Shown here piece by piece: positions 5,698 to 43,294 of a stretch of 64,000 nt of DNA (its first letter is position 1; every line of letters begins with the position of its first letter). The DNA is from Azolla caroliniana (lineage: Eukaryota; Plantae; Polypodiophyta): NCBI GenBank assembly GCA_043228905.1, contig JBHGNT010000007.1, positions 14,322,001-14,386,000 on the forward strand, read 5' to 3'. Under the pieces are notes generated by a model. It was not told the DNA's origin and did no database searches. It worked only from the letters and a program-made list of their open reading frames with translations. The position numbers were made by a program, and so were the translations under genes.

Positions 5698-8600
5698 AAA
5701 ACTAGCGAAAGAACGTGATTACGTTTGAATGAGGCAAAACCAAAGTATGGGTACCGACACATCCAGAAACCGGAACCGGCAAAGAGCTAACACCATTATA
5801 CATTGAAAGCGTTAATATGCTAGAAGGGGTCGCCGATGAGGAAGTCGACCAATATCTGGAGGATAATCCAAATATTGTACCCTTGTTCGAAATAGATGTG
5901 GCCGAAGCAGCCTCTCCGTATATTGCACAACCGGAAGATGTCGGAGAGGAACTGGATAGAGATGCCATAAGAGAACTACGTGAAGCACAGGAGGCCCTAG
6001 AATGGGAAATGGCGGTATCTCAAAGGGTGAAGGCGTCCCAACTAGAAGAAGTAAACTTGGGAACTGGAGAGGAAGCACGACCAATACATATTGCCAAAGA
6101 AATGTCATTGGAAAACAAAACGACAATGATTACATTATTGAAAGAATTCCTGGACGTATTTACCTGGTCCTATGAGGATATACGAGGGTTGGATTCGCAA
6201 CTATATCAACATCAGATCATCTAAGCAAAGACGTCAAACCGGTAGCACAAAGGCGCTACCGAATGAACCCTAATTATGCGGTAAGGGTAAAAGAAGAGAT
6301 CGACAAGTTACTCCGAGTTGGTTTTATCCGGCCGGTAAAGAAAGCCACATGGTTGAGTTTGATAGTCGTCGTGCCAAAGAAGAACGAGAAGATCCGGGTG
6401 TGCGTTGATTACCGGAAATTGAATGCTGCGACGGTGACCGATGCCTTTCCACTTCCATTCACGGATGGAGTTCTGGACGCGGTAGCCGGTCATGAGGTAT
6501 ATAGCTTCCTAGACAGATTCAACGGTTACAATCAAATACAGATGCACCCCGATGACCAAGAAAAGATGGCGTTCGTTACCGAGTGGGGAGTTTTTGTTGC
6601 CGTAATGATGATGTTTGGACTCAAGATGACGCCGACTAGCTTTCAGCGGATAATCATGGAAATATTTGGAGAGTTCATCCCGATATTTATGCAGGTGTTC
6701 CTAGACGACTTCGCGGTGTATAGCCAACAAGGGGAACACTTGGACAATCTCCGGTTATGCCTAGAGAAATGCGGGGGTACCGGCTAAGCTTGAACCCAAC
6801 AAAGTGTGTGTTCGGGGTGACTAGTGGTACACTACTTGGCCATATTGTCAGCAAGGACGGGATAGCAGTAGACCCTCACAAAGTCAAGGCAATTCTGGAG
6901 GCACTGGCACCAACGACGGCCAAAGCATTAAACAGATTCTTAGGACAAATCTGGTGGCATAGCCGGATGCTCTGGTATTTGGCAGATCTTGCAACACCGC
7001 TACATACTGCGGTTCACCGGACACCGTTTCAATGGACGCCTATAGAGGATGACGCTTACTGCACGCTAAAAGTACTACTATCGCAAGCACCGGTAGTACA
7101 ACCCTCGGACTGGTCCAAAGAGTTTCATCTGTTTGTCGATGGGTCAGACATAACAATCGGCAACGCACTTATGCAGCTGACCGAACCCAAGTGGTACCGG
7201 CCGGTATACTATGCGAGCCAGAAACTGTCACAAGAGGAACGAAATTACTCCACAATGGAAAGAGAGGCCTTGGGGATGATTTATAGTGTCACAAAGTTCC
7301 GACCCTATTTGTTGGGCCGTGAATTTTCATTTCACGTAGACCATTCCGCACTTTTATACTTGGTCTCTAAGGCATCCCTCATAGGTAAGTTGGCCCGGTG
7401 GACATTGCTACTACAGGAATTCGAGTTCGAAATTTATCACCGATTGAGTATACAGCACGCAGTTGCCGACTATTTGAGCCGGTTAGAAACTGGCGAGACC
7501 GGTGACGGCGTGCTAGATGAGTTTCTGTATGCCGAACTGTTTAAAATTACAGCAGAAACCACGACAGATAGTATAGTTCCGGATGAGGACAAATGGCCAA
7601 CGAACATGCATCAGTTCTTAAGCAAGGGATTACCTCCAAAAGTGATGAACAAAGACGAGCGGAAACGATTGGCGGTCCAAAGCTAGCATTTTTTTTTATT
7701 ACAGGACACCCTATACCACATGGGAGCTGATGGAATATGGCGGAGAGCGGTGCGGAGTGATGAAAAGGACACCATATTACAAGAAGCACATTGCAGAGTC
7801 GTCGGAGGACACTATGCCGGTGAAGCTACAACAAGAAAGATATGGAGCAGTGGGCTATGGTGGCCAATGACATTGAAAGATTCGGTCCGATATATGAAGG
7901 AATGTGATTTGTGTCAACGAATGGGCCAACCGACAGAACAGGCGCGGATGCCTCACCAGCCGGTACTACCCTTGGAACCACTTCAAAAAGGGGGGCTAGA
8001 CTTCGTCAGACCATTCAAGCCGCCAACCATGTGAACCGGCAACAGATACGTCATTGTCACTACGGATTATTGCACCAAGTGGGTAGAGGCCAAGGCTTTG
8101 GGAGACAATACCGTGACATCAACGACGAAGTTCCTTTGCGAGTACATCTGGTGTCGTTATGGATGTCCAATCGAATTAATTAGAGATTAGGGTGGACACT
8201 TCCTCGGTGAAGTGGTGGAGAGCCTAACAACGTTCTACGTGGTAGTACACAAGCGCAACACTCCATACTACCCGCATGCCAATGGACTAGCCGAGTCCAC
8301 CAACAAGACACTATAGAACATCCTCCAGAAGATCGTCAATGAGAACCAGACCGATTGGGACACGAAGTTGCACAGTGCATTATGGCCTTACCGGAAGATG
8401 TATAAAACGAGCATCAGGACGACACCATTCCGGTTAGTGTTTGGTCTAGAAGCGGTGATGCCGATTGAATTTCAAGTACTGAGTTTACGGATACGGGTCC
8501 GGGAGTGACTGAGTGAAAAGGAATAAGAGAAAATCCGATTGGCGGCACTATGTGACCTAGAAGAGCATCAGATAGCGAGTATCATGCAGTTGAAACTGGA

Positions 8601-9023
8601 GCAACGACGAAGGAAGGCATTCGTCGACCGGCACCGGAAGGGCAATGAGAAGTTGTTCGGAATCGGCAAGCCGATGGGCGTGTTTCAGACCCGGATAGGT
8701 AAGATGCTGGGCAAGCTACGGTTCTCGTGGACCGGACCATACTGGATCACGCGAGAATTCAATGGTTCTTACTAGTTAGGCACGCTTGCCGGAGAAGTAC
8801 TGGACAAATGGGTAAATGGGTTCCGGCCTAAACCCTATTACGGGCCCATGCCGCCAAACCCGTTCCATCAGGTGCAGACCGACGCGGTGTCGAGGTAGTT
8901 GTGGTTCGTGCGGCGAAGTCGCGGGGACTAAGGTTAAGGGGAGTTGAAGAAACTTAACTTTTAATAAGGCTTGTATGGTGATGATAGAATGGTTAAGGGT
9001 AGTAACACGAAGAGTTACAAGTA

Positions 9024-9024
9024 A

Positions 9025-9082
<58 letters not shown>
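9024..9082 (+). repeat. Compound (TG)n(AG)n microsatellite
   Basis: Seen directly. Confidence 0.95.
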
Positions 9083-9084
<2 letters not shown>

Positions 9085-9252
9085 GAGCATAGATAAAAGA
9101 TAGAGACAATGTATGATTCAAGAAAGAAGATTTAGACAAAATATGATTCTAGAAACAAGAGTATATGATATAAACATGATGTATATTAAAAATATAATAT
9201 TTTACCAACCTTACAATCCTTGATCGCAAACTGAACACATTCTCTATCGACC

Positions 9253-9312
9253 CTTGATTTGAACCCACGACATCAACTTCGAAACGAGAGGTTCTCCACC
9301 CAATGAGCTAGT
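9253..9312 (-). other. tRNA-like segment (A box and B box) inside the L solo LTR
   Basis: Minus strand reads TAGCTCATTGGGTGGAGAA...GTCGTGGGTTCAAATC. No acceptor stem found. Confidence 0.6.
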
Positions 9313-9604
9313 CTTCTTTACTTGATTATATTATTTTCTCACTCTCTCTTGATTGATTACCCTATTTTCCCCTTGATCCATCCCTTAATTCCTTGCCTCT
9401 CTTTATAGGTTCTCTCATGCATATGATGATATGGGGGTGCATTGCATGCATGTGATGGATGATTGCCATTTGGCGCACATGCTTTACATGTGATGCATGA
9501 TAGCCATCATGCTCATCTAAGCTCTAACGTATGAAGATACACATGCCATAAGTATTGTGATAAAAATATAACTATAGAAAATAACTTATCCTAATGGTAT
9601 ATGC

Positions 9605-10248
9605 TGTCGAAATTCCGTGCTCGGCCACAACCGAGGAACAGGATCGATTCACAGAAAACGGGAAATACACCAATGCACAAAAAAAACAATAGAGAGAAAG
9701 GGCACACTGGATTTTTACGTGGAAAACCCTAAATGGGAAAAACCACGGGAGTGCAAGACTCCAACTATCACTATACGCGGGAATGTACAATGGCTAGCTG
9801 CAAGGCGACGACCTTGAGCTCGCTGTCCTCGCCACAGGCGGCGGTATTACACAGAGGCGTCGACCTCTTCCTTCCTCCTTCTCTCTCACTCTCTCTCGGC
9901 TGCTCTCACTTCGCTCCCTCTTAGTGGAAAACAGAAAAAAATGAGCAACAACAAAACTGTTTGCCCTAAGTCATATTTATACACATATGACTTTCGGGCT
10001 ATTTACAAATATAGCCTCTAGGGCTCTTGGCAAACATATTCACAAATATGTCTCCGCATCCGAATCTCTCTCCGGGTACATTCGTCATCCGGCTCCGTAA
10101 CCGGGATCTTCATCATCCGGCTCCGTAGCCGGGGTCTTCATCATCCGGCTCCGTAGCCGGGGTCTTCATCATCCGGCTCCGTAACCGCAACCGGGCTTGC
10201 CGTCATTCATCTCCGGACATCCCATCCGGAGGGACCGAAATCCCAACA
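9605..10248 (-). repeat. 3' LTR of Copia B, with 4 copies of a 28-bp U3 repeat
   Basis: Matches 14364-14979 except for one substitution noticed and one extra CTTCATCATCCGGCTCCGTAGCCGGGGT unit. Confidence 0.97.
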
Positions 10249-10258
10249 AACTCCCCCT

Positions 10259-13200
10259 TCACTTCGGCATGGGATGTCTCTCCAACCCGATCCTCTTCCG
10301 GCATGCTCCCAGCTTGTCGGGTGTGAGCACCTTGGTCAGCATATCCGACCCGTTCTCGTCCGTGTGGATCTTCGTCAGCACGAACTCCTTATCTTCTATT
10401 CTTTCCCGGATCCAGTGGTATCTACGCTGGATGTGTTTCGTCCGGGAATGGTAGGCCGCGTTCTTCGCAAGGTGGATGGCACTCAGACTATCGCAGTAGA
10501 GTCGGTACTCCTCCTGCCGGATACCGAGCTCTCTAATGAAGTCCTTCATCCATATTATTTCCTTGCCGGCTTCAACAGCCGCCATGTACTCCGCCTCCGT
10601 GGTTGACAACGCAACCGTCTTCTGCAGCCTCGACTGCCACGAAACAGCTCCCCCTGCATACGTCATCACATACCCTGATGTGGACCGGCTGGTATCTGCA
10701 TCAGCCGACATATCCGAATCGGTAAAGCCGTCGAGTTCGGGCTTACCGGAGCCAAATCGGAGGCACACGTTTGCCGTGCCCTTCAGGTATCGGAGTATCC
10801 ACTTGACCGCGTTCCAGTGCTTTTTGCCGGGATTGCTCATGTACCGGCTCACCACTCCGACTGCGTATCCAATGTCCGGTCTTGTACACACCATTGCGTA
10901 CATCAAGCTTCCGACGGCAGAGGCATATGGCACTTTCATCATGTCCTCCTTCTCAGCCTTTGTCTTGGGGCTTTGCTTGCTGGACAACTGGCAGTTTGCC
11001 GGGAGGGTTGACCCGACCGGTCTTGCTTCCGACATGTTGAACCGGTGAAGCACCTTTGTCACGTACTTCTCCTGTGACAGCCACAACTGCTTCTTCTTCC
11101 GGTCCCGGATGATGTGCATCCCTAGTATTTGCCTCGCCGGACCCAGGTCCTTCATTGAGAAGGTTCGGTGAAGCGCTTTCTTCAGCGCCCGTATCTTGAC
11201 CTGGTCCCGTCCAACGATCAACATGTCGTCCACGTACAGAAGGAGTATTAGATAGTCTCCTCCTTCGAACTTCTTCACAAACACGCAGTGATCAAACTGC
11301 GTTTTGTGGTACCCTTCGTCGGTCATGAAGGAGTCGAACTTCCGGTACCATTGCCGGGGAGCCTGCTTCAGTCCGTAAAGGCTCTTCTTCAACCGGCATA
11401 CCAGGTGCTCCTTCCCTTTCTTCTCGAATCCTTCCGGTTGCTGCATGTAGATCTCTTCTTCGAGGTCACCGTGAAGGAATGCCGTCTTCACGTCCATCTG
11501 TTCTACCTCGAGGTCCATGCTTGCCGCTATGCTCAGCACCGTCCGGATGGAGGTCATCTTCACTACCGGGGCAAATATCTCGTCGAAGTCGACGCCCTTT
11601 TTCTGCTGAAACCCCTTCACCACGATCCTGGCTTTGTATCTCGGGGGGTTTTCGGCATCTCCCGGTTTCAGCTTGAACACCCACTTGTTTCGAAGTGCCC
11701 GCTTTCCTTTCGGCAACTCCACAAGTTCATATGTGTGGTTCTCATGCAGGGAATCCATCTCGTCCTGCATGGCACTCAACCACCTGCGGCTTTGGGTGTC
11801 ATGCTTTGCTTCTTCAAAGCTCTCCGGCTCCCCTTCGTCGGTTAGCAGCACGTGCTCTGGTTCCGGAAATCTCCGGGGGGCCCTTCTCTCTCTTAGAGGA
11901 TATCTCCGTTCCGGAGCTTCGGTAACCGGTTCTTCCGATTCTTCTTCATCCGAATCCATTTCGGGATCGGGGCCGGTTCCGGTATCATTTTCATCTTCTT
12001 CGGCCGGTTCTGTTTCTTCATAGTCTTCGGCCGGATCCTCGAGTGTTAACCGGTCCCTTGCCGGTCGGGACTGCTCCTCGTAGAGTTGATCCTCACCGGT
12101 CGACTTGGAGCTCTTCATCTTCTTCTCCGACTCCCAGTCGGCGAGTGTCTTGTCCTCCATGAAGATGATGTCTCGACTCCTGAATATCTTCTTGTCGACC
12201 GGGTCCCATACTCGGTAGCCGAACTCGTCGTCGCCGTAACCGAGGAATATGCATGGCCGGGTCTTTGGATCTGGCTTTCCTCTCCGGTCCTTTGCCACAT
12301 GCACGTATGCGAGACACCCGAACACCTTCAGATGCCGGTAGGACACTTCCTTACCGGTCCACACTTTCTGCGGTGTGTCTCCGTCCAAAGGTACTGAGGG
12401 TGATCTGTTTATCACGTATGTCGCCGTCGACATTGCCTCAGCCCAAAACCCCTTGGGTAATTTCGCATGTGCCAGCATACTCCGGACCCTCTCCATTATG
12501 GTCCGGTTCATCCTCTCGGCCAGCCCGTTTAGTTCCGGCGTCTTCGGCACAGTAAACTCGAGCCGGATTCCCTTCGAGCGACAGTACTCCGCGAACTGCC
12601 CCCGGTATTCCCCTCCGTTATCCGCTCGTATCGCTTTCAGCTCCCTGCCGGATTCCCTTTCCACTCTCGCGTGAAGTTCTTTGAAGACGCACAACACTTG
12701 GTCCTTTGTCTTCAACGGTGCCGTCCACAGCTTCCGGCTGTGGTCATCAATGAAAGTCACGAAGTACTGGGCTCCGCCATGTGACTTCGTTTCTACCTGA
12801 CACACATCAGTGTGCACCAACTCCAATGGTGCGCTACGTCTCGTCGGTGGCCTTGAGTGGAAGGAGGTTTGGTTCTGTTTACCGGCCAGGCAATCGGTGC
12901 ACTTCTCCAGGTGCACATGCTTCACTGGAATAAGGTTGTCTTCTGCAAGCCTCTTCATCCCCTTCTCACTCATGTGGCACAGTCTTTTGTGCCACAGCTC
13001 ACCGGCAGTGTCGGCTGCCACATTCAGCTCTTCCGGACACAACCAGGCATTCATAAGGTACAGAGTGTTGACTTTCCGGGCCCGAGCCACTATCAGGCTT
13101 CCCTTGCTGAACTTCATTACACCGTTCCGGATGCTACCCGTGTAGCCTTCATCATCTAGCCTCCCGGCCGAGATCAGGTTCAATCGAACCTCCGGAACGT

Positions 13201-14332
13201 GTCGAACATCCTTCAGCAGCATCTTGCATCCGGTTGATGTCATCAGCCACACGTCTCCTATGCCGGCAATCCGGCACGTGCCTTCATTTCCCATCCGGAC
13301 ACAGCCGTGCTCACCGGCTGTGTAGGATGAGAAGTATTTCTTCTCCGGGGTCAGGTGGAACGACGCTCCGGAATCGACCACCCAGGTCATCTCTACACCG
13401 GCAAGGTTCAGCTCCCTCTCTTCGGTAATGAGCATTATCTCTTCTTCACTTGCCGCGAGTGCCGTCGTTCCTTTCCGGTCCTGCCCTCGCCGATCCGGAC
13501 CTCTCCGGTCCGTGGCTCCCCGGTATGCACCGTTTCTCTCCGGTGACTTCTTCGAATCGGTGTCGTCGGCTCCGTTGTCCTTTCGGTAATGCCGACAATT
13601 CTTCCGGAAGTGCCCCGGCTTTCCACAGTGGAAGCATGTGGGCCTTCCTCTTGACTGCGACCGGGTCCCCGACTTCTCCCGTCTTTGCGGACTCCGGTTC
13701 CATTGTCTTCCCCGATCCGATTCGGTAAGCAGCGCCTTTGAGTCGGAGACCGGTTCTTTATCTCTCCGACGCGCTTCTTCATTTAGAATGCTTGTCTTTA
13801 CCGTTTGTAGAGACAAGTTATCTTCGGTGCAGGATGTGCTGAGAGTCACCACCAAGTTCTCCCAGCTTTCCGGCAATGTACACATCAGAATGATGGCTTG
13901 CATTGCATCCTCCAGCGGGAACTTGATCGCCGCAAGCTGGTTCACGAATCCCATGAACGTGCTTACGTGTTCCACCATGCTCTCGCCGTCCCGGTACTTG
14001 AGGTTCACTATCTTCCTCATCAGGGAGGTCCGGTTCAACGCATTCTTCCTCTCGTAGAGGCCCGACAGCTTCCGCCACATCTCATATGCGTTGATGTCGT
14101 TCGCCACATGTTGTAGAACGCTCACGTCGACGTATTGCCGAATGGTTGCAACGGCTTTCCGGTTCAGAAGCCTCCACTCCGTCTCAAGTACCCCCTTGGG
14201 TATTTCCGACCTGTCGATCGGTTCATACAGGTCCCGAACAATGAGCAGATCCTCCATCTTTATCTTCCAGTCGGCGTAGTTCTGCGCATTTAGCACCATC
14301 ATCCCCGGCTGCCCGCTGCTGCCGCCTTCCAT
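10259..14332 (-). CDS. Copia gag-pol polyprotein (gag, CCHC, protease, integrase, RT, RNase H)
   Basis: Track ORF of 1376 aa (10259-14389); the likely start is MEGGSSGQ, downstream of the PBS. Motifs CFHCGKPGH, WVVDSGAS, WHKRLCH, IRADNGGEY, QMDVKTAFLHG, LLYVDDML, FTDSD, RTKHI. Confidence 0.96.
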   Translation of the reverse strand: MEGGSSGQPGMMVLNAQNYADWKIKMEDLLIVRDLYEPIDRSEIPKGVLETEWRLLNRKAVATIRQYVDVSVLQHVANDINAYEMWRKLSGLYERKNALNRTSLMRKIVNLKYRDGESMVEHVSTFMGFVNQLAAIKFPLEDAMQAIILMCTLPESWENLVVTLSTSCTEDNLSLQTVKTSILNEEARRRDKEPVSDSKALLTESDRGRQWNRSPQRREKSGTRSQSRGRPTCFHCGKPGHFRKNCRHYRKDNGADDTDSKKSPERNGAYRGATDRRGPDRRGQDRKGTTALAASEEEIMLITEERELNLAGVEMTWVVDSGASFHLTPEKKYFSSYTAGEHGCVRMGNEGTCRIAGIGDVWLMTSTGCKMLLKDVRHVPEVRLNLISAGRLDDEGYTGSIRNGVMKFSKGSLIVARARKVNTLYLMNAWLCPEELNVAADTAGELWHKRLCHMSEKGMKRLAEDNLIPVKHVHLEKCTDCLAGKQNQTSFHSRPPTRRSAPLELVHTDVCQVETKSHGGAQYFVTFIDDHSRKLWTAPLKTKDQVLCVFKELHARVERESGRELKAIRADNGGEYRGQFAEYCRSKGIRLEFTVPKTPELNGLAERMNRTIMERVRSMLAHAKLPKGFWAEAMSTATYVINRSPSVPLDGDTPQKVWTGKEVSYRHLKVFGCLAYVHVAKDRRGKPDPKTRPCIFLGYGDDEFGYRVWDPVDKKIFRSRDIIFMEDKTLADWESEKKMKSSKSTGEDQLYEEQSRPARDRLTLEDPAEDYEETEPAEEDENDTGTGPDPEMDSDEEESEEPVTEAPERRYPLRERRAPRRFPEPEHVLLTDEGEPESFEEAKHDTQSRRWLSAMQDEMDSLHENHTYELVELPKGKRALRNKWVFKLKPGDAENPPRYKARIVVKGFQQKKGVDFDEIFAPVVKMTSIRTVLSIAASMDLEVEQMDVKTAFLHGDLEEEIYMQQPEGFEKKGKEHLVCRLKKSLYGLKQAPRQWYRKFDSFMTDEGYHKTQFDHCVFVKKFEGGDYLILLLYVDDMLIVGRDQVKIRALKKALHRTFSMKDLGPARQILGMHIIRDRKKKQLWLSQEKYVTKVLHRFNMSEARPVGSTLPANCQLSSKQSPKTKAEKEDMMKVPYASAVGSLMYAMVCTRPDIGYAVGVVSRYMSNPGKKHWNAVKWILRYLKGTANVCLRFGSGKPELDGFTDSDMSADADTSRSTSGYVMTYAGGAVSWQSRLQKTVALSTTEAEYMAAVEAGKEIIWMKDFIRELGIRQEEYRLYCDSLSAIHLAKNAAYHSRTKHIQRRYHWIRERIEDKEFVLTKIHTDENGSDMLTKVLTPDKLGACRKRIGLERHPMPK

Positions 14333-14363
14333 TTTCTGTGTTATCGTCGCTCTGATACCAGTT

Positions 14364-14979
14364 TGTCGAAATTCCGTGCTCGGCCACAACCGAGGAATAG
14401 GATCGATTCACAGAAAACGGGAAATACACCAATGCACAAAAAAAACAATAGAGAGAAAGGGCACACTGGATTTTTACGTGGAAAACCCTAAATGGGAAAA
14501 ACCACGGGAGTGCAAGACTCCAACTATCACTATACGCGGGAATGTACAATGGCTAGCTGCAAGGCGACGACCTTGAGCTCGCTGTCCTCGCCACAGGCGG
14601 CGGTATTACACAGAGGCGTCGACCTCTTCCTTCCTCCTTCTCTCTCACTCTCTCTCGGCTGCTCTCACTTCGCTCCCTCTTAGTGGAAAACAGAAAAAAA
14701 TGAGCAACAACAAAACTGTTTGCCCTAAGTCATATTTATACACATATGACTTTCGGGCTATTTACAAATATAGCCTCTAGGGCTCTTGGCAAACATATTC
14801 ACAAATATGTCTCCGCATCCGAATCTCTCTCCGGGTACATTCGTCATCCGGCTCCGTAACCGGGATCTTCATCATCCGGCTCCGTAGCCGGGGTCTTCAT
14901 CATCCGGCTCCGTAACCGCAACCGGGCTTGCCGTCATTCATCTCCGGACATCCCATCCGGAGGGACCGAAATCCCAACA
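14364..14979 (-). repeat. 5' LTR of Copia B, with 3 copies of the 28-bp repeat
   Basis: Repeat of 9605-10248, adjacent to the PBS. Confidence 0.97.
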
Positions 14980-15307
14980 TATGCTTCATCCTTGGTGTGT
15001 GAGGTTACAGGTTCAAGTCTCTCAAATGTTACTTAATACAATATTCAAGTTTATTTTTATATCGTGAAGCAAATCCTTCACGACACCGGTAACCGGAAGC
15101 GGCAAGCAATTGGCTGGCAACCAAGAGGAGCCGGTGTTACCAGACAACCGGGACTAATGCTTAATTATTAATAAATAAATAAATAAAAATCATCATGCAT
15201 AGGCGAGGAGCGAATGGGCACTTTGAAAAGGTGTGTGGTTGGTGGCTAATCAAAGCCTATTTAAAAAACAACATGTGTCAACCGACTATTATTATAGTAC
15301 ATGACGT

Positions 15308-17300
15308 TGTCGCGAAGATTCGCGCGTGCGTGTGCTACTCGATCGACCACCGGGGTATTGGACTGGGGAGGACGTTCGCGGAATTATCAAAGAGATGACG
15401 ATCAATGTAAGATTGGATGAAATTTGTTCACTTGAGAAGAAGAAAGATATGAAGAAGATAAAGATAATTATATTGATGATAGTGGTGTTGGTGATATCAC
15501 ATATTGAGCCTCCCTTACACAAGCCCAACTAGAGGCTTTTATAGTTCTTTCCATGCTTGTGACATGCACAAAAACATGGGCTAAAACCATGGTTTTGTGC
15601 ACACGGTTTTGCTTATGTTATGCACAAAGCATGGGTTTAGAACCATGGTTTTGTGCACATGGTTTTCTATGGTTGTTTCGTCTATAATTCGTATATGAAA
15701 AGGAAATACATAAAATCTACACTATATGATAGTTGTCCTAGTGGTAAGGCAAACATCTTGTATCTTAGAGGTGCAAGGTTCAAAACCTTGCTTGTACCCC
15801 TCTGTATGAACTCAAGTGCCACTAAGCCTTAGGCTTATTTGCTAAGTGTATGTGCAATGTTGCACATCCTTGGTTTATTTGTTTCACACCGTAGCCGAAA
15901 ATCGTCACGACATCCACCCCCACCAAACCCACACATCCTCCGGTATGTGCCGAGAAAGGTGAAGAGGTGAGATCTTTGGCAACGGTGATCAACCAAGTTC
16001 CTCCACACGCTCGTCGACCTCGTCTGACTTCGTCTTCCACTTTGAGTATGCCCAATCTTTCCAACCAAACCACCGTAGCCACCCAATCCACCATATCCGG
16101 CGCTCACACCTTCTTCACTGGTCGGTTGTAGTAGATCTACCGAATGATGTTGTCGATCTGACTACTCTTTCTTCGTCCACCGTGCGTGTCCTTTCATTGG
16201 ACTCCTGGCCACTCCTCGCGCTCACCGTCTTCAACTGGGTATTGTGGATCGTTCGTGTTGATCTCCGATTAGGCCGGGTTTGCCCTTGTCCGGATCGGTC
16301 TCTACCGATCACTTCTTGGCTCGTTTGGCCTTCGTCTACATTCGCATTTCACCGAGTCGGGCTCGATCGATTGATTCCTGTCGGGTCGGCCCCCTTTTGG
16401 ATCGGGATTGTCCGATCGATTTCCACCGAATCAGGTTTTGGCCGGGTCGGCCCCGGTCGATCGGCTCCCATGTGGATCTTCCTTCATTTGGGCCGGAATC
16501 CCAGACTGATCGTCTTCTGGTTCGACCAATTCTCGACTCTTCCTTCCTTCCTGCATGCCGCATCTCCATCGAACTCAACCGTGGCTTCATCCTTGGCCTC
16601 CTCGTCGGCAACATCCTTCCCTCCATGTATGCTCACCTCGATCCATATTGTCTCCTCTCCGCCACCTCCTGTATCTTTGGTCTTATGTTGACACACGGTT
16701 TCGATTGCCGAAGTCTTCGGAACCAATGTGAAGGAATCCCTTTGTTCATGCACATTTTACCTTGTCTTCCTCATCGCCCTTCCGGTCGTCCGCTTTTCCG
16801 TTGACACATTCCGTCTCCCCGGTCTCACGTTGGCGCACGTGTTGGTGTGGGGATAGGTGTGGGGATGTCCTTTCTTCCTTGATCTTCTTCCTCCTTGTGT
16901 TGGGCCTTCGTCTTCCCGTCACCACCTTCCGTCTCTCCGGTCTGACGTTGGCACGCGGGTGCAATCGCGGAAGTCTCGGGAACAAGAGTGGAGAAAGTAT
17001 CGACATGGCTATCCGTCGTCGACTTGTCCATAGCCACCTCCGACTCGATGTCGTTTGTCATGGCTACCTCCTCAATCACGCCGGACTCAAACACTTTATC
17101 TCCCTCGATCATGCAAGCTTTTCTCATGCTTGCACCTTCATCAACCGATGTTTCGTACACAATGCGTGTTCCGAAACATTTATCCTCCCTCGAAGTGGCG
17201 TTCATCGTCCTTGAGTCATCAGCCTCCTCCTTGGCCATCGTTTCTTCGTAAGACAAGAAGGTGCCTAGAATGGCTCCACCCCCCCTCCTAAGGGGGTTCA
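15308..17300 (-). mobile_element. Truncated L-family non-autonomous element: 3' LTR 15308-15912, PPT, low-complexity internal ORF remnants
   Basis: TGTCGCGAAG...GTCACGACA termini. TCCACCCCCACC (PPT on minus) as at 32711 and 62430. ORF 16825-17301 is homologous to the C-terminus of ORF 33663-34469. Confidence 0.8.
15733..15792 (+). other. tRNA-like segment in L LTR
   Basis: TGTCCTAGTGGTAAGGC (A box/D arm), then GAGGT-GCAAGG-TTCAAAA-CCTTGC (paired T arm, B box). Confidence 0.65.
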
Positions 17301-17519
17301 ACGTTAAGGGGGAGAGAGAGAGAGAAAGATGTCAAAGAGAGAGAGAGAGAAATGATCATTCTATTCATGTCACTTACTCACACCTCTTTGTATCCACCAC
17401 ACTGACACTTACATTCACACTCATAATCGTATAACATTACACATACATATAAACACATTACATCTTTCACCCTCACTTATCACACTTATCAATCACCCAT
17501 ACATCTCGTACGGTAACAA

Positions 17520-19269
17520 GAATCTAATTTACTTTGTCACCAGTCATACATTGAATTGGAGGTAGGCTCGTTGGTCATCTTTTGTTGCTGACTACGACTT
17601 CGAGATCTTGTTTCGACCTGGCGTTCAACATGGGAAAGCTAATGCCCTCTCTCGGCATCCAGATTTCGCACTACGCCCAGGAGACGACGCATATGCTTAG
17701 CAATCCCACTGTTTGTTGAGACCCGATCAACTTCATATGTTTCCAACCTGCATGTTGCTTGATGATTCTTTGTTCAACGAGATCGCCAAGGCAATCATGT
17801 CAAACCCATTCACCAAGGAAATCATGCATCAAAGACCCATCCTTGGAAATGAAAGCTTAGATCTCAACTAATTTACAACCCGGGATGGGTTACTATATCC
17901 TAATCACCTCGTATACATTCTAGAAAGATCGTGTCACACACGGGTATTACAAAACTATCATGATGATCCTCTTGCCAGCCACCTTGGGGTTACGAAGACA
18001 GTAGAGTTGCTATCTCAAGGGTTTTGGTGGCCCCAACCTTGGAAAAATTTTCAAGGAATTTATCAAGACGTGTGACGTATGTGCTCACTCCAAAGTGGCT
18101 AACCATCGGCCATACGATCTTCTCCACCCACTCCCAATTCCAAGTCGACCATGGGCGTACATATCCATGGAATTTATAATTGACCTCCCTCATGTTAGTG
18201 GACATGACACGGTGCTAGTGATTGTCGATCGATTTTCAAAGATGGTTCACTTTGTCCCCTATTCCAAAACCTTTTTCTTAAAAATGTTGTTCTACTATAC
18301 GGCTTACCCGAGGATATCACCTCTGACCGAAATTCTCAATTCATCTCCCACTTCTGGCGACGACTTCTACAGACATTCGGGACTTCTATCAACTTGTCAA
18401 CAACGTACCATCCTTAAACTGACGGACAAACCGAAAGAGTCAACCAAATCGTCGAACAATACCTCCGATGTACCGTGAGCTACCAACAAGAGGACTGGGT
18501 GGACTTCCTTGTAAAGGCGGAATTTGCCTACAATAATAGTATCCATGCCACATGCCCCCACTTTACACGATGTGCATCATGACCTCTCCCTTGAGCTCTA
18601 TATCGCTGGCGACCAATATAAAGATCAAGCTAACGAACATCGCTTGGCCACGCCAACTTTTGCAGTTGAGGACATGGTTTGGTTGTTATGTCGCCACATT
18701 GCGACCACACGTCCTTGAGCAAAATTGGACTACAAAAAGTCCAAGGTCCCTTATGTATCATTGAGGGAATTGACCATGTTGCCTTCCGGTTAGCACTTCC
18801 CCCAACATTCAAGATTCACAACGTTTTCCACGTTTCCCTCGAACTCTACCATGCTTCTCGAATCCCGGGATGAAAACCTCCTCCACCACAACCCATGGAA
18901 TTGTCTTGGGAGGCGGCCTTAGAAGGAGGATAATGTCATAGACATGATGCCACAGTGGAATGTCAGGGTTGAACCCATGACCTCTTGGTCTTAGTGGGCA
19001 ACCTTACCAATTGAACTACATCTATCTGTGCATCATTATATAAGATTAAACTTCTTATATTGTAGGTTCATCACGAAAACTTGCATGCATCCTCATGCAT
19101 TTTCTAGAAGTTTCTTACCTTTCATGCATACCTCCTCGTTCTTGTATAAATACTCAGGTGCACCTTGATTCTAATCAAGGTGAACAACACCAGTTACGAA
19201 AGCATAAGTTTAGTTCTTGTTCTCTTGTCACTCTTTCTCTTGTCTATTTTCTCTCTCTCTCTTGTTTAT

Positions 19270-19306
<37 letters not shown>

Positions 19307-19336
19307 GTATCTACCCTCATCTACTCATCCGTGACA
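17520..19336 (+). mobile_element. Decayed chromovirus-type Gypsy fragment: RNase H end, integrase, PPT and 3' LTR 18934-19336
   Basis: ARWSSFVADYDFEILFRPG, PLPIPSRPWAYISMEFI, VDRFSKM, GP...FRLALP...HNVFHVSL. PPT AGAAGGAGGA, then TGTCAT...GTGACA. Confidence 0.8.
18960..19022 (-). other. tRNA-like segment in chromovirus-type LTR
   Basis: Minus strand reads TGTAGTTCAATTGGTAAGG...GAGGTCATGGGTTCAACCCTG. Confidence 0.65.
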
Positions 19337-20569: not shown

Positions 20570-23500
20570 ATGAATGGAGATGAAGCTCCCGCAGTAGCAC
20601 AAAAACTCTGATATCGACATTGCACCTTTAGAACTACAACACACCACTAGTTCAACCCTCGTCCAGGTATGTATTAGTTACAAATTAACAAATATTATTT
20701 TTTTCCTTACTAATAACTGTAACTTTGTTGCCTGTTCATCTTTTATAAAAAACGATTAGAGCAAAGTCGTTGGAGTTCCAAACCAGGATGTCTCGAAGAT
20801 CAAGGTGTAGTAGCAAGTGTGTTTATGATTGACTATTTTTTTTATTAGAGTTGATTTCATACATATTTTAGATGAGGGTTTTTTATTTTCGTAAGCGGTT
20901 GATTTCTGATTATGGTTTCTTATTAAGGTTTCTAATTAGGATTTCTAATTTCCTTAAGTGTTTGATTTCTGATTAGGGTTTCTGATTAAGGTTTCTAAAT
21001 AGGGTTTCTGATTTTTTAAGCGGTTGATTTTTTATTACTGTTGAAAATTTCAGATTTAGTGTTGGAATTTGGCACCAATTCACATTTTTTATTTCAATGG
21101 TAACTATGTGTCTGCAAACTTCCCCCAAACTTGATTTAGGATTTGGTTGATTGTGGCTGGTTTTTTATTTTTGATTCTCCCCTACCAATTATGGTTCTAA
21201 ATACACATGTCTCAGTAGAGAAAAGGTAATATGCATTGATTTTTTATTTCAGGTGGCTCGTTCCTCCATATCCTAGAGTGATGAACTTTGCAAAGTTTTG
21301 CGAGACAAAAGAGGACTTTAACAACATATATGGTCTGTCGCCAGAGGGTATTGACCCTGCTATTCTAACTAATGAATTGATTAGTGATGTAGACTGGTTG
21401 TCAGTCTATAAAGTGCCCAGAGTGAAAGACAAGGTAAAGCTTAAACATGTACGACTGGAGCTGTATGACAACTGCATCAGGCTCCACCAGAAAGTACATC
21501 AAGAGATCCCGGTCAACAACGAGTTGTCAGTTGCATTCGCGAGAGCTTTTGGGTACGAGTATTGTCAAACAACGAAGGAAGCAACGGACCCTGAAATGTG
21601 GTGAGGCATCGGTAGAACGATGCCGGAAGATGGGGAGCTTGCAACAAAAAATGGCAAGATTCTGGAGCATGGTAGTTGATAATGCAACTGCTGACTCCCA
21701 ACAAACCCGCAAGTATACACCACACCGAAACACAATGAAAGCCAATGTCGATGATACAAGTGAGACATTTATTAGCTATATGCTGAAAAATGTCCATGAA
21801 GCCTGTGAGACATTAGAGGCAACAAAGACTGATTTAGAGAAAGCAACATTGGTTGCTACGATGGAGAGCAAAGTCACTTTGGCAATGACAACAATCAGAA
21901 ATAAGATTCAGGTAGTAATTGTTTTGCTAGTATGTTACATGGTATAAAACTTTTACATGAAAATGTGCTTAGTGAGGCATTATCTGGAACAGGTTGCTCA
22001 ACATGAGCTCGAAATTGAGAGGCCGATGGATCCCCAATGGAAAACACAACTGCAAACAAAGATCCGGGTTCTTTCAATGAACCTGGACCTTCTAGGTGTA
22101 AATACTGTCGTTGATTACAAAGATCCAGGTTCTTTCCAGCACACATACCATATCATTTGTTTTCAATATGCCTGTCGCATTGCTACAGTCTATTTAGGGG
22201 ATTGCAATACAACTCTCCCAGATGAGTGGAGAAAACTGACAAGTAAAAATGCAGCTTGTCTCTATAATGTTGTAGCTAATTAGCTAAGCGGCATAAAGTA
22301 TGGTACCTAGTTAGTTGTTATAGTTCAATAGTGTGGTAGCTAATTAGCTACAACCTAGGTATTAGCTAATTAGCTACTGCAAATCTATGGTCTAGCAGCT
22401 AATTACCTAAAGTGTAGCTAATTAACTAAGCAATATCAAAAGTGGTAGCTAATTAGCTACTGCCATAATGAAGAAGAATAGCTAACTAACTGAGATGTAA
22501 CTAATTAGCTATTGTCAACCTATAGTCTAGTAGCTAATTAGCTAAGATGTAGGTAATTAGCTACTACCATAATCAAGTAGAATAGCTAATTAACTATTGC
22601 TAGCCTATAGTGTAGTAGCTAACTAGCTACTACCATATTTAAGTAGAATAACTAATTAGCTATTGTGGAGCTAATTAGCTAAGCAGTATCAAAAGTGGTA
22701 GCTAATTAGCTACCTCCATAGTTAAGAAGAATAACTAATTAGCTAAGATGTAGCTATTTAGCAACTTTCAACCTATAGTCTAGCAGCTAATTAGCTAAGA
22801 TGTGGCTAATTAGTTAAGTGGTAGTGTATTAGCTACTACCATAATTAAGTAGAATAACTAATTAGCTACTGCCAACCTATAGTGTAGTAGTTAATTAGCT
22901 ACAATGTAGCTAATTAGCTACTACCATATTTAAGTAGAATAGCTAATTAGCTACTGCCAATCTATAGTCTAACATCTTTTTAGCTAAGCAGTATCAAGAG
23001 TGGTAGCTAATTAGCTACTACCATACTTAAGTGGCTAATTAGCTATTGCAACCTATAGTGTAGCAACTAATTAGCTACAATGTAGTTAATTAGCTAGTAC
23101 CATACTTAAGTAGAATAGCTAATTAGCTTCGATGTAGCTAATTAGCTAATGTCATGCTAAAGTCAACAACTATTTAGCTACTGCCAACCTATAGTGTAGT
23201 AACTAATTAGCTACATTGTAGCTAATTAGTTAAGTGGTAGCTAATTAGCTACTACCATACTTAAGTAGAATAGCTAATTAGCTTCAATAGTAGCTAATTA
23301 GTTACAATGTAGCTAATTCGCTAAGTGGTAACTAATTCACTACAATGATACTTAAGTAGAATAACTAATTTGTTACATCTTAGCTAATTAGCTAAGCCAT
23401 ATAAAGTGTGGTAGCTATTTAGTTGTTATGGTTCAATTGTGTAGTAGCTAATTAGCTACAACCTAGGTGCTAGCTAATTAAGTACTGCAAATCTATGGTC

Positions 23501-25310
23501 TACTGCCAACCTATAGTCTAGCAGCTAATTAGCTAAGTGGTAGCTAACTAGCTATTGCCAACCTATTGTCTAGCAGCTAATTAAGCAGTATCAAGAGTGA
23601 TAGGTAATTAGCTACTGCCATAGTTAAGAAGAATAACTATTTAGCTAAGATGTAGTAGTATCGAGCAGTATCAAGAGTGGCTACTAATTACCTACTATGT
23701 AGATAATTAGCTATCATGTTTAGAATTGAGCTAAGGTCATAGGAAAACACAAGAGAAGTCGTTAATTAGCTGACCTGTTGTTGTAGAATCTTGTGGATTA
23801 AGGAGGTTGCATGAGGTGTTCGATGCCGATGATGCCTCAACCTATGAAGAGATAGTTGGCAACGTGGTTGAAAGTAAGAGTCCTGCTATCACATCTCCTT
23901 CAGATCAAATCCACCCTATTCTTTTGGAAGATTGTATTGAATTAGGCAATGTTGTGAAAAGCCATGAAATATTGGAAACAATATGTAAATCTAAGGTTCA
24001 GAACTACAATGTTTTTTAACACTTGATGCAACATTTCTTCGAATCCCAAAATCTTGATTCAACCCCATCAAGCCCAACTGCTGATGATGTCCCACTAGAT
24101 CCCACTGTACTTGAAAAGATATCGCAAGACGTGGCTGACGTGAAAGCCGCTGCTGAGGCGATGGAAAGGTTGTCGGAGGAGGACACACTTGCGCAATGGG
24201 TGAATGAAGCAAGGCTAAATGGTCAACTGTCTAGAAAAAGGTTGATGAAGGGGCCACGATCAGGAACAAGACCAGTTACTCGATCAAGTGGCTCTTGAAT
24301 TGGAGCTAATTACTACCAATTACTGATAAATGGGATATGACTGTTAGCTATTTTCCTAGAAAATTAGGAAGATGGCCTATGGTCTATTTGGACAAGTAAC
24401 ACCTCAAATTAGTTGTTGCTTGATCCATATTATTTAATGGAACTCTATGATGGATATTAAGATAATATTATTATTTTGTTGCAAAATATTTCACGTTCAT
24501 TATGTTGTTTTGTAAGACTATTAACTCCTTTGTGAGTGTGAATATGTTGGTGTTTTCTGATGTTGCAGAGTCTAAAGGGTTTGAATCTGTTGCTCCTAAG
24601 GCTGATGGCAATGCGGAAACTGTTGATGTTGTTGCGTGTTTAGAGGGCCCCATCTTGAAAGTAGATGTAGCAACTGACACAAATGATCTGGTCACACAAG
24701 TAGATCAAGCATGTTGCACAGATGATCTGATTTTGCAGGTAGAATCTGCAACATGTGATAGTAGTGGGCTAATATCAACTAGACAAGTATCTACATGCAT
24801 AGAAGTAATGCCAGAACCTATGACACAGTCGACTATACAAGAGCAAAACAGTGTGAAGCTAGGCTCAATGACTACACAAGAGCAAAACAAGGTGAAGCCA
24901 AACCCAAAGACATAGTCGACCAAGGGTTTGAAGAGGAAAAGGATACCAATTGTGTCAATAGAACCTGAGTTGATTGAAATTGATCGTGTGCTACCAATAC
25001 TTGGTGTAATAGAGGCTCAGTTGTAGGAATGGAAACCTAAACCATTAGAAGACGAAAGAAGAGCCTTGACCTTGGAGCTTGATAGAGTGCTGATGAGTGT
25101 GTATATGACACCAAGGAGCGACGCGAATCAATTTCTAGAGTGGGTTGTGCAATACTTTGATTTCTTTATTTGGAGTGAAAAACCACGTTCAGATGTTTGG
25201 AAGTGTGTAGAACATTCTTCCCAAAGTGGCGACAACACTTCAAGGGTCAATGGACACGAGAAAGATGTGAGCAACAGGATATTGCAAGATTCAAACCCTA
25301 AACCCTAAAC
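20570..25310 (+). pseudogene. Probable spliced accessory gene of the adjacent DNA transposon, with a degenerate FCP1/NIF-like HAD motif near its end
   Basis: GC-richer ORF blocks (21253-21912, 21957-22283, 23787-24298, 24571-25308) bounded by GT..AG signals (CAG|GTATGT 20668, TTTCAG| 21252, TTGCAG| 24570) and separated by AT-rich DNA. Internal stops present. Confidence 0.45.
22274..23775. repeat. Complex satellite of the 14-bp palindrome TAGCTAATTAGCTA with recurring linkers
   Basis: Several dozen exact or 1-2 mismatch copies separated by 5-25 bp linkers drawn from a small set. Confidence 0.95.
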
Positions 25311-25319
25311 CCTAAACCC
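25293..25319 (+). repeat. Interstitial plant telomeric repeat (AAACCCT) x ~4
   Basis: AAACCCTAAACCCTAAACCCTAAACCC. Confidence 0.85.
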
Positions 25320-26009
25320 AATGAAATGCTTGATAACTACTTGATGAAAACATTGAGCTACCAACTAACTGCATGGATGTGGACACCATACCAAGCTCGG
25401 TATGTGGATCACATATGTAGAGAAGTTCCACTGACCAACAAGAGCTTAGCTATTTATAGGTGCTTTGTAGACATTGCCAATGGTGTATTATAAATATGTA
25501 ATTTGATGACAGATTAATCAATGAAGAATTAAATAGCTTGTTTTGAGTAAATTATCTATTGTGTAATTTTAAAATAGATCATTGATTTCTAATTTCATGC
25601 TGTTGGTTGTTCTCAGAATGACAAATTGTTTGAACTTGTGCATGGATCACTTGAGAGTAAAAAAATCATTGCCATTATGGACATTGAACATACATTAAAA
25701 CTGAAAGTTACAATAAGTAAAATTGACAGTAGAATTGACTGTAATCAATACACATTTACCAGACACGATTTTATTAAGAAACAAGAACAGAAAAAGACTC
25801 CCAAACGATTTTATTAAACTGTATTTTTGCAATACAACTATTTTGTCCATTTTACAAGAGAAATGGTATGATCTCCTTGTAGCTACAAATTCCATGGCAT
25901 ATTGTTGTAAATACATTCATATACATTAGCACTAATTGTGTATAAATCTGAGCAGCTATTGTATTGCGACATCGGGACGTTGATGCACCTAATCAAATGA
26001 GAGTACATG

Positions 26010-26958
26010 TATGCTACTGGTTTGTCTTCTAAAAGACTATACACATAATCATAATCATCTATCTTGCATAAAAAATACCTTCGATGTAGAATGTCCCGGC
26101 ATATACAAAATTTCCCCAAGCATCTACAATATTCTGCGTTGTACATTGTTTAGAAACTGTGCACTTCAATATATAGAAATCAACACCCTCTGAATTGTCT
26201 TCTTCTACATTTACAATGAAATTATCCCCAATGTTTATGACATCACTCAGAGTATCTCCACGGCCCTGATATGTGAAGTCAACATTGTTTATTGTTTTTC
26301 CATCCATTAGGTCCTTTTCATTCATTCAATGTATGGTACTCCCAAATCTGAATATATGCTTTGTTTAAACAATACCTCCAATTTCCCTGCACACAATGGA
26401 AGCAAAAACAAGTTAATCCTCTAACCGCAATACAATGACCATCCAACCTAGAATAACCCCAAACAACATGGAGAGATTGCAATTCGGGAATTCCTTGACA
26501 CTCCGAAGTCTTCTCCCTATTTACTTCATCTATCTTCACTTCCCAAAATTCACGTTTGATATCTCGGACCTGTGAGGAATAAACACCAGTTGCACTCGTT
26601 GACATATTGGCTCTTAAAAATTCGACTACATGTGCTGCACAATTGATATGCACACTATCTGCCTTTAGTTGTTCATGGGTAAGTGCCCGCTTTATAACTG
26701 CACCTTTACCATCATGTTCACCTTTACCATGGCCAGACCCAAAAAAATTCCATCTTATCTCCAAACCTGTTACAGAAAAATACCTCCCAACAAAATAAAA
26801 TGGATGTGTAGCCTTGAATTGTGACGCAACTTCGTCAGACCAAACACAATGTCGAGTAAGCTCCGAACGTTGACATAATAACCATTGCTAATGTAACAAG
26901 AACAGTGTTGGACAAACAAGGTATCATGCTTCTTATCATCAGAAATATGGTCATGCCC
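26010..26958 (-). pseudogene. DDD transposase C-terminal half, Sola (probably Sola2)-like, decayed
   Basis: Motifs ISDDKKHDTLFVQHC, VWSDEVASQFK, WNFFGSGHGKGEHDG and a C-terminal CFCFHC, spread over shifted frames. Superfamily assigned from motif recall only. Confidence 0.7.
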
Positions 26959-29900: not shown

Positions 29901-31965
29901 TTGGGGGGTTGGCGTCAAAGTTCAGAGCATTCAGAACGGTAGTCTACATGAGGGAGAATACACCGACATTTTTCGAGCTACAATTGATGTTGCTCGTAGG
30001 AGAAAACCACTCGAGTTCATCGAGGAGTATGCACACCGTCAGCAAGATGTTGTACATGGAAGAAGATAGGTCCTGTGGTTGTGGGGGATGAGGCGGGTCA
30101 ACACACAATGGAGGCTACTGATAAGAGCAAAACAGAAGCCATAATCAAAATGCCGACAACAATTCCAGACCTTCTAGAAATACGGGGAGTCAAGGCGGCA
30201 TTGGAAACCGACAAGCAAAAGTCGAAACAAAATGCTGGTACTGTGACAAGAAGGACCATACAAAGAGAGAGTGTTGGAAGAAGCGCTCCGATTTGGGCAA
30301 ACCCAGATCGAGCAGGGGTGACGCCGATAGGCGTCAAAGATCGCACTACACCGAAGGCTTAGGAGGAACTAGAAATGGATGAAGGAAAGCACCTCGAAAC
30401 CGAACGAGGTATGGTATGTTGATCCTGGAGCGTCAACCCATGTGATGAGCCACAAGGAGTGGTTCTTATATTTCAAGAAACTAGAATAACTAGGGGTTGT
30501 CGAAACCGGTGATAACACCGCACATACCATCAAACATGTCGGTGAAGTTCGCTTAAACCATGTCAGACAAAAAGGGAAGCTAATGAACATCTTGCACGTC
30601 CCGAAAATCACAAAGAACTTGGTGTCGTTCGAATAGATTGTCGACCAAGGGATTTAGGTTCGGTTCACACACCTCAGGTGTTTCATCAAGGAAGAGGGCA
30701 AGGTCATCGCACAAGGGCACCAAGAAGGGAGGATGTTCATCCTCGAAACGAACGAAGTCAGAACCGCGATGTTTGCGAAAGGGAAAAAGGTTGAGTCGGA
30801 CATCAACTTATGGCACAAGCGGTTCGGCCATGTCAACTTCCTGTGGCTTCAAGAAATGCAGATGAAGAATATCATGTTCAGGTTGCCGAAATTCAATGGT
30901 CGATAATAGCCAAGCCTATGAAGCCTCCGAACTAGGGAAGCACCGCCAACTTCCATTCCCCAACAAGCAAAATTGGCTTGATTTGATCCATTCAGATGTG
31001 TGGGGACTGGCACAGAATGTGAGCATCGGAGGAAGCCATTACTTTGTAACCTTCCTCGATGACGACACTCGGCATACTTGGGCGTGGTTGATTGCAAAGA
31101 AGAGTGAAGTCTTCGCTTGCTTCCTGAAGGTGAAGAGCCTCGCTCAACAGGGAACCGGCAGAAAAATCAAGTGCATGAGGTCCGATGGCGGAAAAGAGTA
31201 CCTTTTCTACCATTTCTCAAGTTATCTGGAGAAGGAAGGAATTCGGCAAGAGTTCTCTTGCAGATACACTCCGGAGCAGAATGGTGTGGCCGAGTGGAAG
31301 AATCGGAATATAGAGGAGGTGACATACACAATGCTTGAGGAGAAGCATATGCCTTAGCTTTACTAGGTCGAAGTGGTTTGGAGGGACTTCTACTTGAAGA
31401 ATCAGACATCTACAAATGGAGATGTCACCACATGAGGGTATTCGGCAGCCAAGCATAGGTGCATGTGCTGAAGGAGAAACAGAGGAAGCTAGACGTGAAA
31501 GCCGAGAAGTGCATTATGTTCGGCTACTCGGACGAGCAGAAGGGTTATAAGTGTTATAACCCCTGAACAAAAGAGGTTTGAGTAAGATGAGATGTTGTTT
31601 TCGACGAGTCAGCTTCGTGGTACTTACCCTCATCTCCAGACCCCGACAACTCCATTCCGATCTTTGTGGATGAGGTCAGTGAGGCTGAAATGCCTCTGGA
31701 CAAAGAAGAAGTTGCAGCTTTAGAAGAGAGTTTGACCTCATTCCGGCTAAGTGGGTTGAATGAGAAACAAAGTCGGAATGACTAGTCGAATGAGTAGTGG
31801 ACACTCGGCCATGTTCTCCCGGCACAAGGAACCGAGGAGACGGTTCATGCGTAAAGACAAGGGGAAGAAGAAGATGTCGTAGTACATCACAAACAAAGAC
31901 GAATCGGAGCGAAGCGAATCCAACTTTGGAAAGCTTGAAGACAGACCTCCGAAGAAGACGATCGC

Positions 31966-36493: not shown

Positions 36494-36819
36494 GGCCATG
36501 TGAAGGCTCAACTAGCGCCATCATTCGACATAAAGAACCTGGGGGACCTTCATTACTTCCTCGGGATCGAAGTGATTTGCATTCCCGAAGGCATACTGAT
36601 CAGCCAACGACATTATGTGCTGAGTATGCTCTTCAAGTTCGGTATGAAGGAGTGAAGGCCATGTGAAGGCCCAACTAGCACCATCATTCGACATAAAGAA
36701 CCTGGGGGACCTTCATTACTTCCTCGGGATCGAAGTGATTTGCACTCCCGAAGGCATACTAATCAGCCAACGACATTATGTGCTGAGTATGCTCTTCAAG
36801 TTCGGTATGAAGGAGTGAA
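36494..36819 (+). repeat. 163-bp tandem duplication in Copia C RT
   Basis: 36494-36656 repeated at 36657-36819 with a few substitutions. Confidence 0.93.

Positions 36820-43242: not shown

Positions 43243-43294
<52 letters not shown>

Follow-up and report, generated by a model that had tools for sequence, protein, structure and literature searches.

The window, i.e. the whole 64-kb stretch of DNA analysed here, consists of nested plant LTR retrotransposons surrounding a single PPR gene (Table 1). Relatives of the PPR protein with similar length are found in Adiantum and Ceratopteris and are 48-51% identical, which points to a fern as the likely host. Four related Gypsy LTRs, all located on the - strand and bordered by terminal TGTCG...CGACA, are denoted as family L (LTRs A, B, E/C, and D). 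LTR A resides in another Gypsy element (5731-8887), where the 4-bp flanks GCGG/CCGG differ by one mismatch in the single testable copy; the Copia element nested in it shows an unbroken 1382-codon frame with all Pfam domains. The internal part of the element of LTR B (15913-17331) harbors gag-like remnants only. The module placed at 55075-55130 in the sequence-only reading that preceded this analysis lies in the right part of LTR E/C, which is one LTR split by a second Copia element. The first LTR of this Copia contains an AT-rich insertion with internal inverted repeats (42334-43034), possibly a MITE.

LTR D is built from a core that bears a tRNA-like module (61205-61881) and a U3 extension resembling the module-less LTR at 34515-35953. 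A fusion between a U3 of the latter type and a whole module-bearing LTR is suggested by an LTR-start-like motif inside LTR D at 61860-61881. A one-off chimera was ruled out, as the same build recurs in a relative outside the window (L055) and in the nested LTR of another (L037). The earlier statement that one copy possesses an integrase gene holds insofar as an integrase region is joined to LTR D, with its frame broken there. A PBS, presumably matching tRNA-Trp, follows each of two related 5' LTRs, those at 34515 and at 40811. Two elements (31998-35953 and 15308-17331) combine family L ends and a PPT with only a gag-like ORF inside and are likely non-autonomous partners. In all family L LTRs, a CATG-rich, partly palindromic tract separates the module from the predicted TATA box. 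At 22271-23713, palindromic tandem repeats rich in TAGCTAAT form an array that produces weak, spurious Rfam miRNA matches.

An unrelated Gypsy element ends in the LTR at 18934-19336. Its pol region is broken (~17520-18930), and its integrase is 27% alike to that of LTR D over 44 residues. Owing to the resemblance of its motifs, this element is taken to be chromovirus-like; the chromodomain region is seemingly deleted in this copy. A tract similar to the CATG-rich one is present in its LTR, too.

Table 1. Positions of the retroelement parts, tRNA-like modules, and the PPR gene in the window.
Feature	Position	Strand	Remarks
LTR A	8888-15085	-	solo LTR, ~820 bp minus nested Copia 9605-14979
Second module, LTR A	9256-9310	-	sense; A box 9310-9300, B box 9265-9256
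Predicted Pol II TATA box, LTR A	9402-9408	-	basis: motif and conservation
A box, LTR A module	9587-9597	+	Copia inserted 7 nt after
Copia nested in LTR A	9605-14979		TSD TATGC; LTRs 95.5% alike
B box, LTR A module	15010-15019	+	past nested Copia
LTR B	15308-15912	-	605 bp, 3' LTR; PPT at 15913ff
Predicted TATA box, LTR B	15538-15544	-	
LTR B module	15734-15791	+	A box 15734-15744, B box 15777-15786, T-arm-like hairpin 15773-15791
3' LTR of unrelated Gypsy	18934-19336	+	TATA 19145-19152
Antisense tRNA-like module of this LTR	18966-19018	-	A box 19018-19007, B box 18975-18966
LTR E/C, left part	41850-42250	-	TATA 42079-42085; outer end approximate
Copia splitting LTR E/C	42251-55064		TSD TATAA
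LTR E/C, right part	55065-55200	-	past nested Copia; outer end approximate
LTR E/C module (module C), degenerate	55077-55129	+	A box 55077-55087, B box 55120-55129
PPR gene	57007-58761	-	584 codons; E motif present, no DYW match
LTR D	61205-62429	-	1225 bp, 3' LTR; PPT at 62430ff
Weak second module, LTR D	61421-61474	-	sense, downstream of TATA
Predicted TATA box, LTR D	61542-61548	-	
LTR D module	61745-61801	+	A box 61745-61755, B box 61788-61797, hairpin 61784-61801
PPT and integrase region joined to LTR D	62430-64000	-	frame broken in this copy
CATG-rich tracts	9410-9520, 15545-15670, 42085-42170, 61550-61670		module-to-TATA interval

tRNA-like modules in the LTRs of the window

The A and B boxes previously reported in the four family L LTRs were confirmed, all on the + strand, with 43-44 nt from A-box start to B-box start. 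The LTR ends and the PPTs of LTRs B and D assign the LTRs to the - strand, and the modules are thus antisense to their elements, in agreement with the earlier claim. Within U3, they precede the TATA box by 217-240 bp. A position toward the U3 end, as previously described, applies to modules A, B, and C (76, 136, and 81 nt from the LTR start) and not to that of LTR D, which lies 642 nt into the LTR; the constant of the module position is the distance to TATA, not to the LTR start. The T stem GCAAGG/CCTTGC is complete in the two copies for which this was stated, LTR B (6/6 pairs, 7-nt loop) and LTR D (6/6, 6-nt loop). LTR E/C reaches 6/6 pairs including three G-U, LTR A only 3/6. The strong divergence ascribed to the flanks is restricted to the comparison of LTRs B and D, where module and terminus are the sole alignable parts, whereas LTRs A, E/C, and D have an LTR core of 250-375 bp in common (62-68%). 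A T7 run is found near the module of LTR D at 61833-61839.

A generic box model, not trained on family L LTRs, was compared with 30 shuffles of the window. It yielded 9 matches at 8 window sites versus 1.6 ± 1.3 in the shuffles (maximum 5); four of these sites are modules and four are chance-like. Modules B and D are detected by this model, the split module A and the degenerate module C are missed. A module profile trained exclusively on outside loci gave 17 window matches, with all four reported modules within the top 6 (E 1e-13 for D, 2e-8 for B, 0.05 for the right half of A, and 0.15 for C). No profile match better than E 2 was obtained in 15 other LTR segments of the window. Two candidates were rejected: a box-model match in the LTR at 34515-35953 (score 19.2), which falls into CCGGT-rich repeats and is not backed by the profile, and the GGTTCGAG motif that many module-less LTRs contain close to their 3' end, which shows no above-threshold A box at tRNA spacing.

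Beyond the four modules first reported, the window harbors further ones on the - strand, at 19018-18966, at 9310-9256, and, weakly, at 61474-61421. The first of them is located at the U3 start of the chromovirus-like LTR (score 27.6), and its head differs from that of family L. The second module of LTR A is found ~100-150 bp downstream of TATA (score 24.8, profile E 0.002).

Distribution, inheritance, and conservation of the modules

Relatives were collected by a scan with the integrase C-terminus, and the best 80 of 183 confirmed loci were retained. Thirteen of these are without a called LTR start and 17 more are too short, leaving 50 informative LTRs. Within this sample from the best 80 of 183 loci, 11/50 LTRs carry a U3 module, seven in antisense (L002, L003, L004, L039, L046, L047, L055) and four in sense orientation (L007-L010, with a different head), and 39/50 carry none. 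Two additional antisense modules, in L064 (LTR start uncalled) and L078 (96 nt), are outside the 50-LTR count. The loci are short-read repeat assemblies that may be collapsed or chimeric, as L028 and L042 appear to be. The LTRs of the relatives match those of the window at 68-87%, and the integrases end in a short acidic tail, with the stop 32-60 codons after the match. No relatives were found in either of two scans of viral contigs. Ahead of the module-bearing LTRs of L003, L007, L008, L039, L046, and L078, pol frames are open over 1116-1149 codons, which indicates that autonomous-type elements carry modules.

One family-wide trait, as implied before, is not supported: the module is absent from 39 of the 50 informative relatives, and four possess the different sense head. 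Since most sister LTRs are without it, the module is optional. The integrase tree distributes modules over at least four distinct clades, 60-86% identical to D, and one large clade of 49 rows is devoid of any module; modules are also present in the second Gypsy lineage. The module tree resolves few groupings (4/22 branches starred), and the number of captures derived from its long branches is a floor, not a count. In ~50 kb of LTR, the box model gave 12 matches; internal sequence (156 kb) contained 2 and the 34 kb beyond contained 3, and an additional one (the 13th) lies in L017 past the LTR end. Matches among the loci are not independent of each other.

The antisense orientation is shared by 4/4 window copies and 7/11 loci with a U3 module, whereas the modules past TATA and those of L007-L010 are in sense orientation. 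Second sense modules are present in LTRs A and D as well as in L002, L004, L046, and L047, with the B box 117-172 nt past TATA, so that TATA is bracketed by a divergent module pair; the second module of LTR D is homologous to that of L002 (66% over 94 nt). Two antisense modules in tandem are found in L046 and L047, and a convergent pair in L039. A nested LTR of the same lineage in L011 (1850-2150) shows another sense U3 module (profile E 0.02). The distance from B box to TATA amounts to 160-240 nt in 13/13 cases, that from LTR start to B box varies between 40 and 642 nt. This fixed distance is partly due to shared descent.

The modules belong to the LTR family, as proposed previously: they occupy a homologous place in LTRs selected by their integrase, beside long open pol frames. 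Recent independent SINE insertions, considered before as the finding that would speak against this, were not encountered. Contigs from four DNA sequencing runs, which represent three organisms, were mapped to LTR B at 80% likeness, and in 4/4 runs the depth was level across the module and its flanks with neither a SINE-like peak nor a dip (in run X1, 8,400-11,500 across the module versus 8,300-14,200 alongside). Two contigs identical to the window show a depth near 10 in run X1, which indicates that the LTR B family is abundant; the summed depth does not equal copy number. At the LTR start and the PPT, the depth is 6-10 times that across LTR B; many sister families thus share this end, but not the U3 of LTR B. 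Neither a TSD of the module nor an empty site was seen in the LTR comparisons, and the family L head was not observed as a free dispersed repeat in the loci and contigs examined. In LTR retrotransposons generally, both LTRs of a new copy receive their U3 from the 3' LTR, so that one module capture spreads through a whole subfamily. The modules were likely captured from heads of tRNA-derived SINEs.

For the chromovirus-like LTR, mapping at 80% likeness revealed high depth across the PPT and LTR start, the module, and the TATA region in 4/4 runs, and ~100-fold lower depth in the U3 between these parts, again in 4/4 runs (in run X4, 25,000-37,000 and 27,000-65,000 versus 85-500). Several contigs run from the PPT or the LTR start into the module, and many module contigs continue into other context, with 45-79 loose ends per run at position 18946. 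The head of this module also occurs outside LTRs, in the flanks of L017 and L031 (78-80% alike). The respective regions (L017:3040-3260 and L031:3380-3590) form a dispersed repeat in which two tRNA-like heads are placed face to face beside a microsatellite; the first head is the one resembling the module. The sharing of this head with another dispersed repeat speaks for a SINE-like source and takes weight from the argument based on depth.

Whether the boxes are better conserved than their surroundings was answered in the affirmative for deep divergence, whereas the compensatory changes anticipated for the T stem were absent. The mean pairwise identity of the ten tRNA-invariant box columns is 0.87 versus 0.61 for the other module columns (11 modules, p=0.0007), a difference inflated by the fact that most modules were first found by motif scan. 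With only the seven modules from loci outside the window, the values are 0.88 versus 0.70 (p=0.02), and C/G and A/T columns, taken separately, each show the excess. Among seven aligned LTR cores, the TATA box reaches 0.89, the B box 0.78, and the A box 0.68, compared with a median of 0.46 for other stretches of the alignment. The spacing from A to B box is 43-45 nt in 24/24 full-length modules (with ties broken towards 44). In the unbiased trio L002/L003/L004, the boxes are not outstanding, with the B box equalled by 27% of all 10-column stretches. Within the family of LTR B, the module is as variable as the rest (7 listed variant sites in 60 bp versus 42 in 605 bp), and among the 40 of 42 rows listed, no substitution of at least 10% falls into the B-box core (15777-15783). 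The invariant B-box C is lost in L004 and L064, and the B box of L010 is decayed, too. Upstream of the module, the AT content exceeds the LTR median in 11/11 cases, as is expected for plant Pol III promoters (PMC3082873).

A tRNA fold, i.e. a cloverleaf with acceptor and anticodon stems, could not be substantiated. ARAGORN detected 0 genes in the whole window, Rfam no tRNA up to E 5, and a search of four 151-nt stretches (modules of LTRs B and D, 18966, and 9256) gave no tRNA (RF00005) match up to E 10; modules A and C were covered by the whole-window scan only. The best Rfam match of the LTR B module is mascRNA (E 1.4). No covariation was detected in the T stem, where the own arms form 2.27 of 4 outer pairs versus 2.25 for swapped arms (n=26, p=0.50; in a thinned set of n=12, p=0.33). 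Folds of 7/9 modules are no better than those of shuffles, and the stable ones are D (z -3.4) and L002 (z -4.4). A T4 run is located at most 40 nt from the module in 7/15 antisense modules, and 6/15 have none within 110 nt. Box conservation without covariation or a tRNA call implies, as far as sequence comparison can tell, that the boxes are kept as DNA and not as an RNA fold.

Candidate roles of the boxes in LTR biology

The best reading, which is assigned about even probability, is that captured SINE or tRNA heads have been retained next to the Pol II promoter to serve as TFIIIC sites. A and B boxes ~200 bp upstream of TATA would bind TFIIIC, and the bound factor would clear nucleosomes or hold back silencing near the Pol II promoter of the element. 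Variable orientation, lost fold, kept boxes, and steady TATA distance fit such a DNA-level site better than an RNA. Regions that contain tRNA genes are poor in nucleosomes, and a role as chromatin organisers has been proposed for TFIIIC sites (PMC11346459). The mode of action described there for tRNA genes and extra-TFIIIC sites, which corresponds to the one proposed here, concerns host loci of yeast and animals, and none of the papers found reports it for a plant LTR. The main rival is a passenger relic: tRNA-derived SINE heads, common in this genome, would have inserted into LTRs of an ancestor, persisted outside the core promoter, and multiplied together with the LTRs without benefit. TATA of module-less LTRs is mostly 170-270 nt from the LTR start, and captures may thus simply survive only outside the core promoter. 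The patchy presence, both orientations, tandem or partial duplicates (L046, L047), the occurrence of the 18966 head outside LTRs (flanks of L017 and L031, loose ends at 18946), the undiminished variation of the family B module, and the decayed B boxes all agree with a relic. On the other hand, the excess conservation falls exactly on tRNA-invariant columns, only module and terminus remain alignable between LTRs B and D, captures recur at similar TATA distance, neither a TSD nor an empty-site allele was seen, and the 100-fold depth contrast in the chromovirus-like LTR, which arises partly from non-LTR context, is not readily expected from a passenger. A relic is regarded as possible, though somewhat unlikely.

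A role of the module as an active Pol III gene, with a short RNA that serves e.g. as antisense or decoy RNA or as a small-RNA precursor, as in foamy-virus LTRs (PMC3993851), is rather improbable. Both boxes and the AT-rich upstream sequence are present, the T4 runs within 40 nt would predict an RNA of ~100 nt, and two modules form stable hairpins; these two folds differ from each other, however, the other folds resemble shuffles, the T stem does not covary, many modules are without a nearby T4 run, and U3 antisense RNA would probably favour silencing of the element. Antisense transcription as the purpose of the module, as initially put forward, is doubtful, given the varying orientation and the T4 run in 7/15 only; of the earlier proposals, the TFIIIC-bound chromatin barrier agrees best with the data. 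Very unlikely as its main role is a landing pad or decoy that draws retroelements seeking Pol III sites. Both nested Copia insertions occurred at a module, inside it in LTR A and at its predicted 5' end (55065-55069) in LTR E/C, with a rough post-hoc chance of 0.011 for both; yet these are two cases with sites ~25 nt apart, attracting insertions harms the host element, and a side effect of open chromatin is more likely than a reason for retention. The two insertions provide a weak hint of open chromatin at the module. Chance motif matches or an LTR-internal palindrome of no tRNA origin would agree with the missing Rfam and ARAGORN tRNA calls, but are largely refuted, and hardly credible, in view of the enrichment in LTR over internal sequence (12 matches in ~50 kb versus 2 in 156 kb), the tRNA spacing in 24/24 modules, and the cross-validation by the outside profile. 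Retention as TFIIIC sites may be extended to a wider, less probable picture, in which autonomous elements of two Gypsy lineages in ferns would have captured A/B boxes repeatedly, with TFIIIC-mediated anti-silencing, bracketing of TATA in some of them, and hot spots for retroelements.

The precedent named in the sequence-only reading, Cassandra, is less close than Helenus (TRIMp3; Kojima, 2024, PMC10886601), which had been missed there. Like family L, Helenus elements possess tRNA-derived sequence in their LTRs, with conservation centred on boxes A and B and no functional tRNA, and an origin by SINE insertion into the LTR was proposed (PMC10886601); one plant case, from Selaginella, is given in the sections consulted. 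Helenus is non-coding, 311-1263 bp long, and has only PBS and PPT between its LTRs, whereas LTR D joins an integrase region. For Helenus-1_SMo, a sense module in a 120-bp LTR was proposed to make the genomic RNA (PMC10886601). In contrast, the LTRs analysed here measure 400-1225 bp, contain TATA, join long pol frames, and have a main module that is antisense in U3 and therefore cannot make genomic RNA. According to the same source, TRIMp3 and its autonomous partners should not share long LTR stretches, and tRNA-like parts are present in "not a few" LTRs of Repbase, with the analysis devoted to TRIMs only (PMC10886601). This remark limits the novelty, as coding elements with such LTRs may sit undescribed in Repbase. 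Cassandra TRIMs likewise carry an internal Pol III promoter in plant LTRs, including those of ferns, but it is a 5S-derived type-1 promoter in non-autonomous elements, where Pol III makes the element RNA (PMC10886601; PMC12786077).

Foamy viruses resemble family L in having A/B-box Pol III units in the LTR of an autonomous retroelement, within a region read by Pol II. Their product, the expression of which was shown, is a hairpin pri-miRNA (PMC3993851), whereas the family L module is tRNA-shaped, mostly antisense, and without a conserved hairpin. The 4-bp flanks of LTR A, a single copy with one mismatch, may reflect the NCGN-type target preference given for Phygy, a non-chromovirus Ty3/gypsy clade (Neumann et al., 2019, PMC6317226). 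Phygy hosts are seed-free plants, and the named relatives of the family L integrase are from liverworts; the part of the Phygy description at hand makes no mention of a Pol III module (PMC6317226). A Phygy-like nature of family L is a lead and not a placement. A tRNA dimer at the LTR/PBS border is described for a Culex Gypsy element (PMC3286476), and the captures of this kind cited in the accessible part of PMC13570524 are only Cassandra, Helenus, and Ajax. A description of tRNA-type boxes in the LTRs of autonomous Gypsy elements from plants was not found in the literature outside subscription journals and Repbase entries.

Pol III promoters in plant LTRs are known from tiny non-coding elements, where they make the element RNA. 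Here, such boxes are present in coding elements with a Pol II promoter, mostly in the wrong orientation for element RNA, and they recur from several sources. If the relic reading is true, the value is mostly one of annotation. The coexistence of sister LTRs with and without a module makes the TFIIIC idea directly testable. If TFIIIC binding occurs, hundreds to thousands of TFIIIC sites would be scattered through the genome, and if it protects the LTR promoter, this would constitute a cis-acting evasion of silencing that may help to explain how LTRs persist in the large genomes of ferns.
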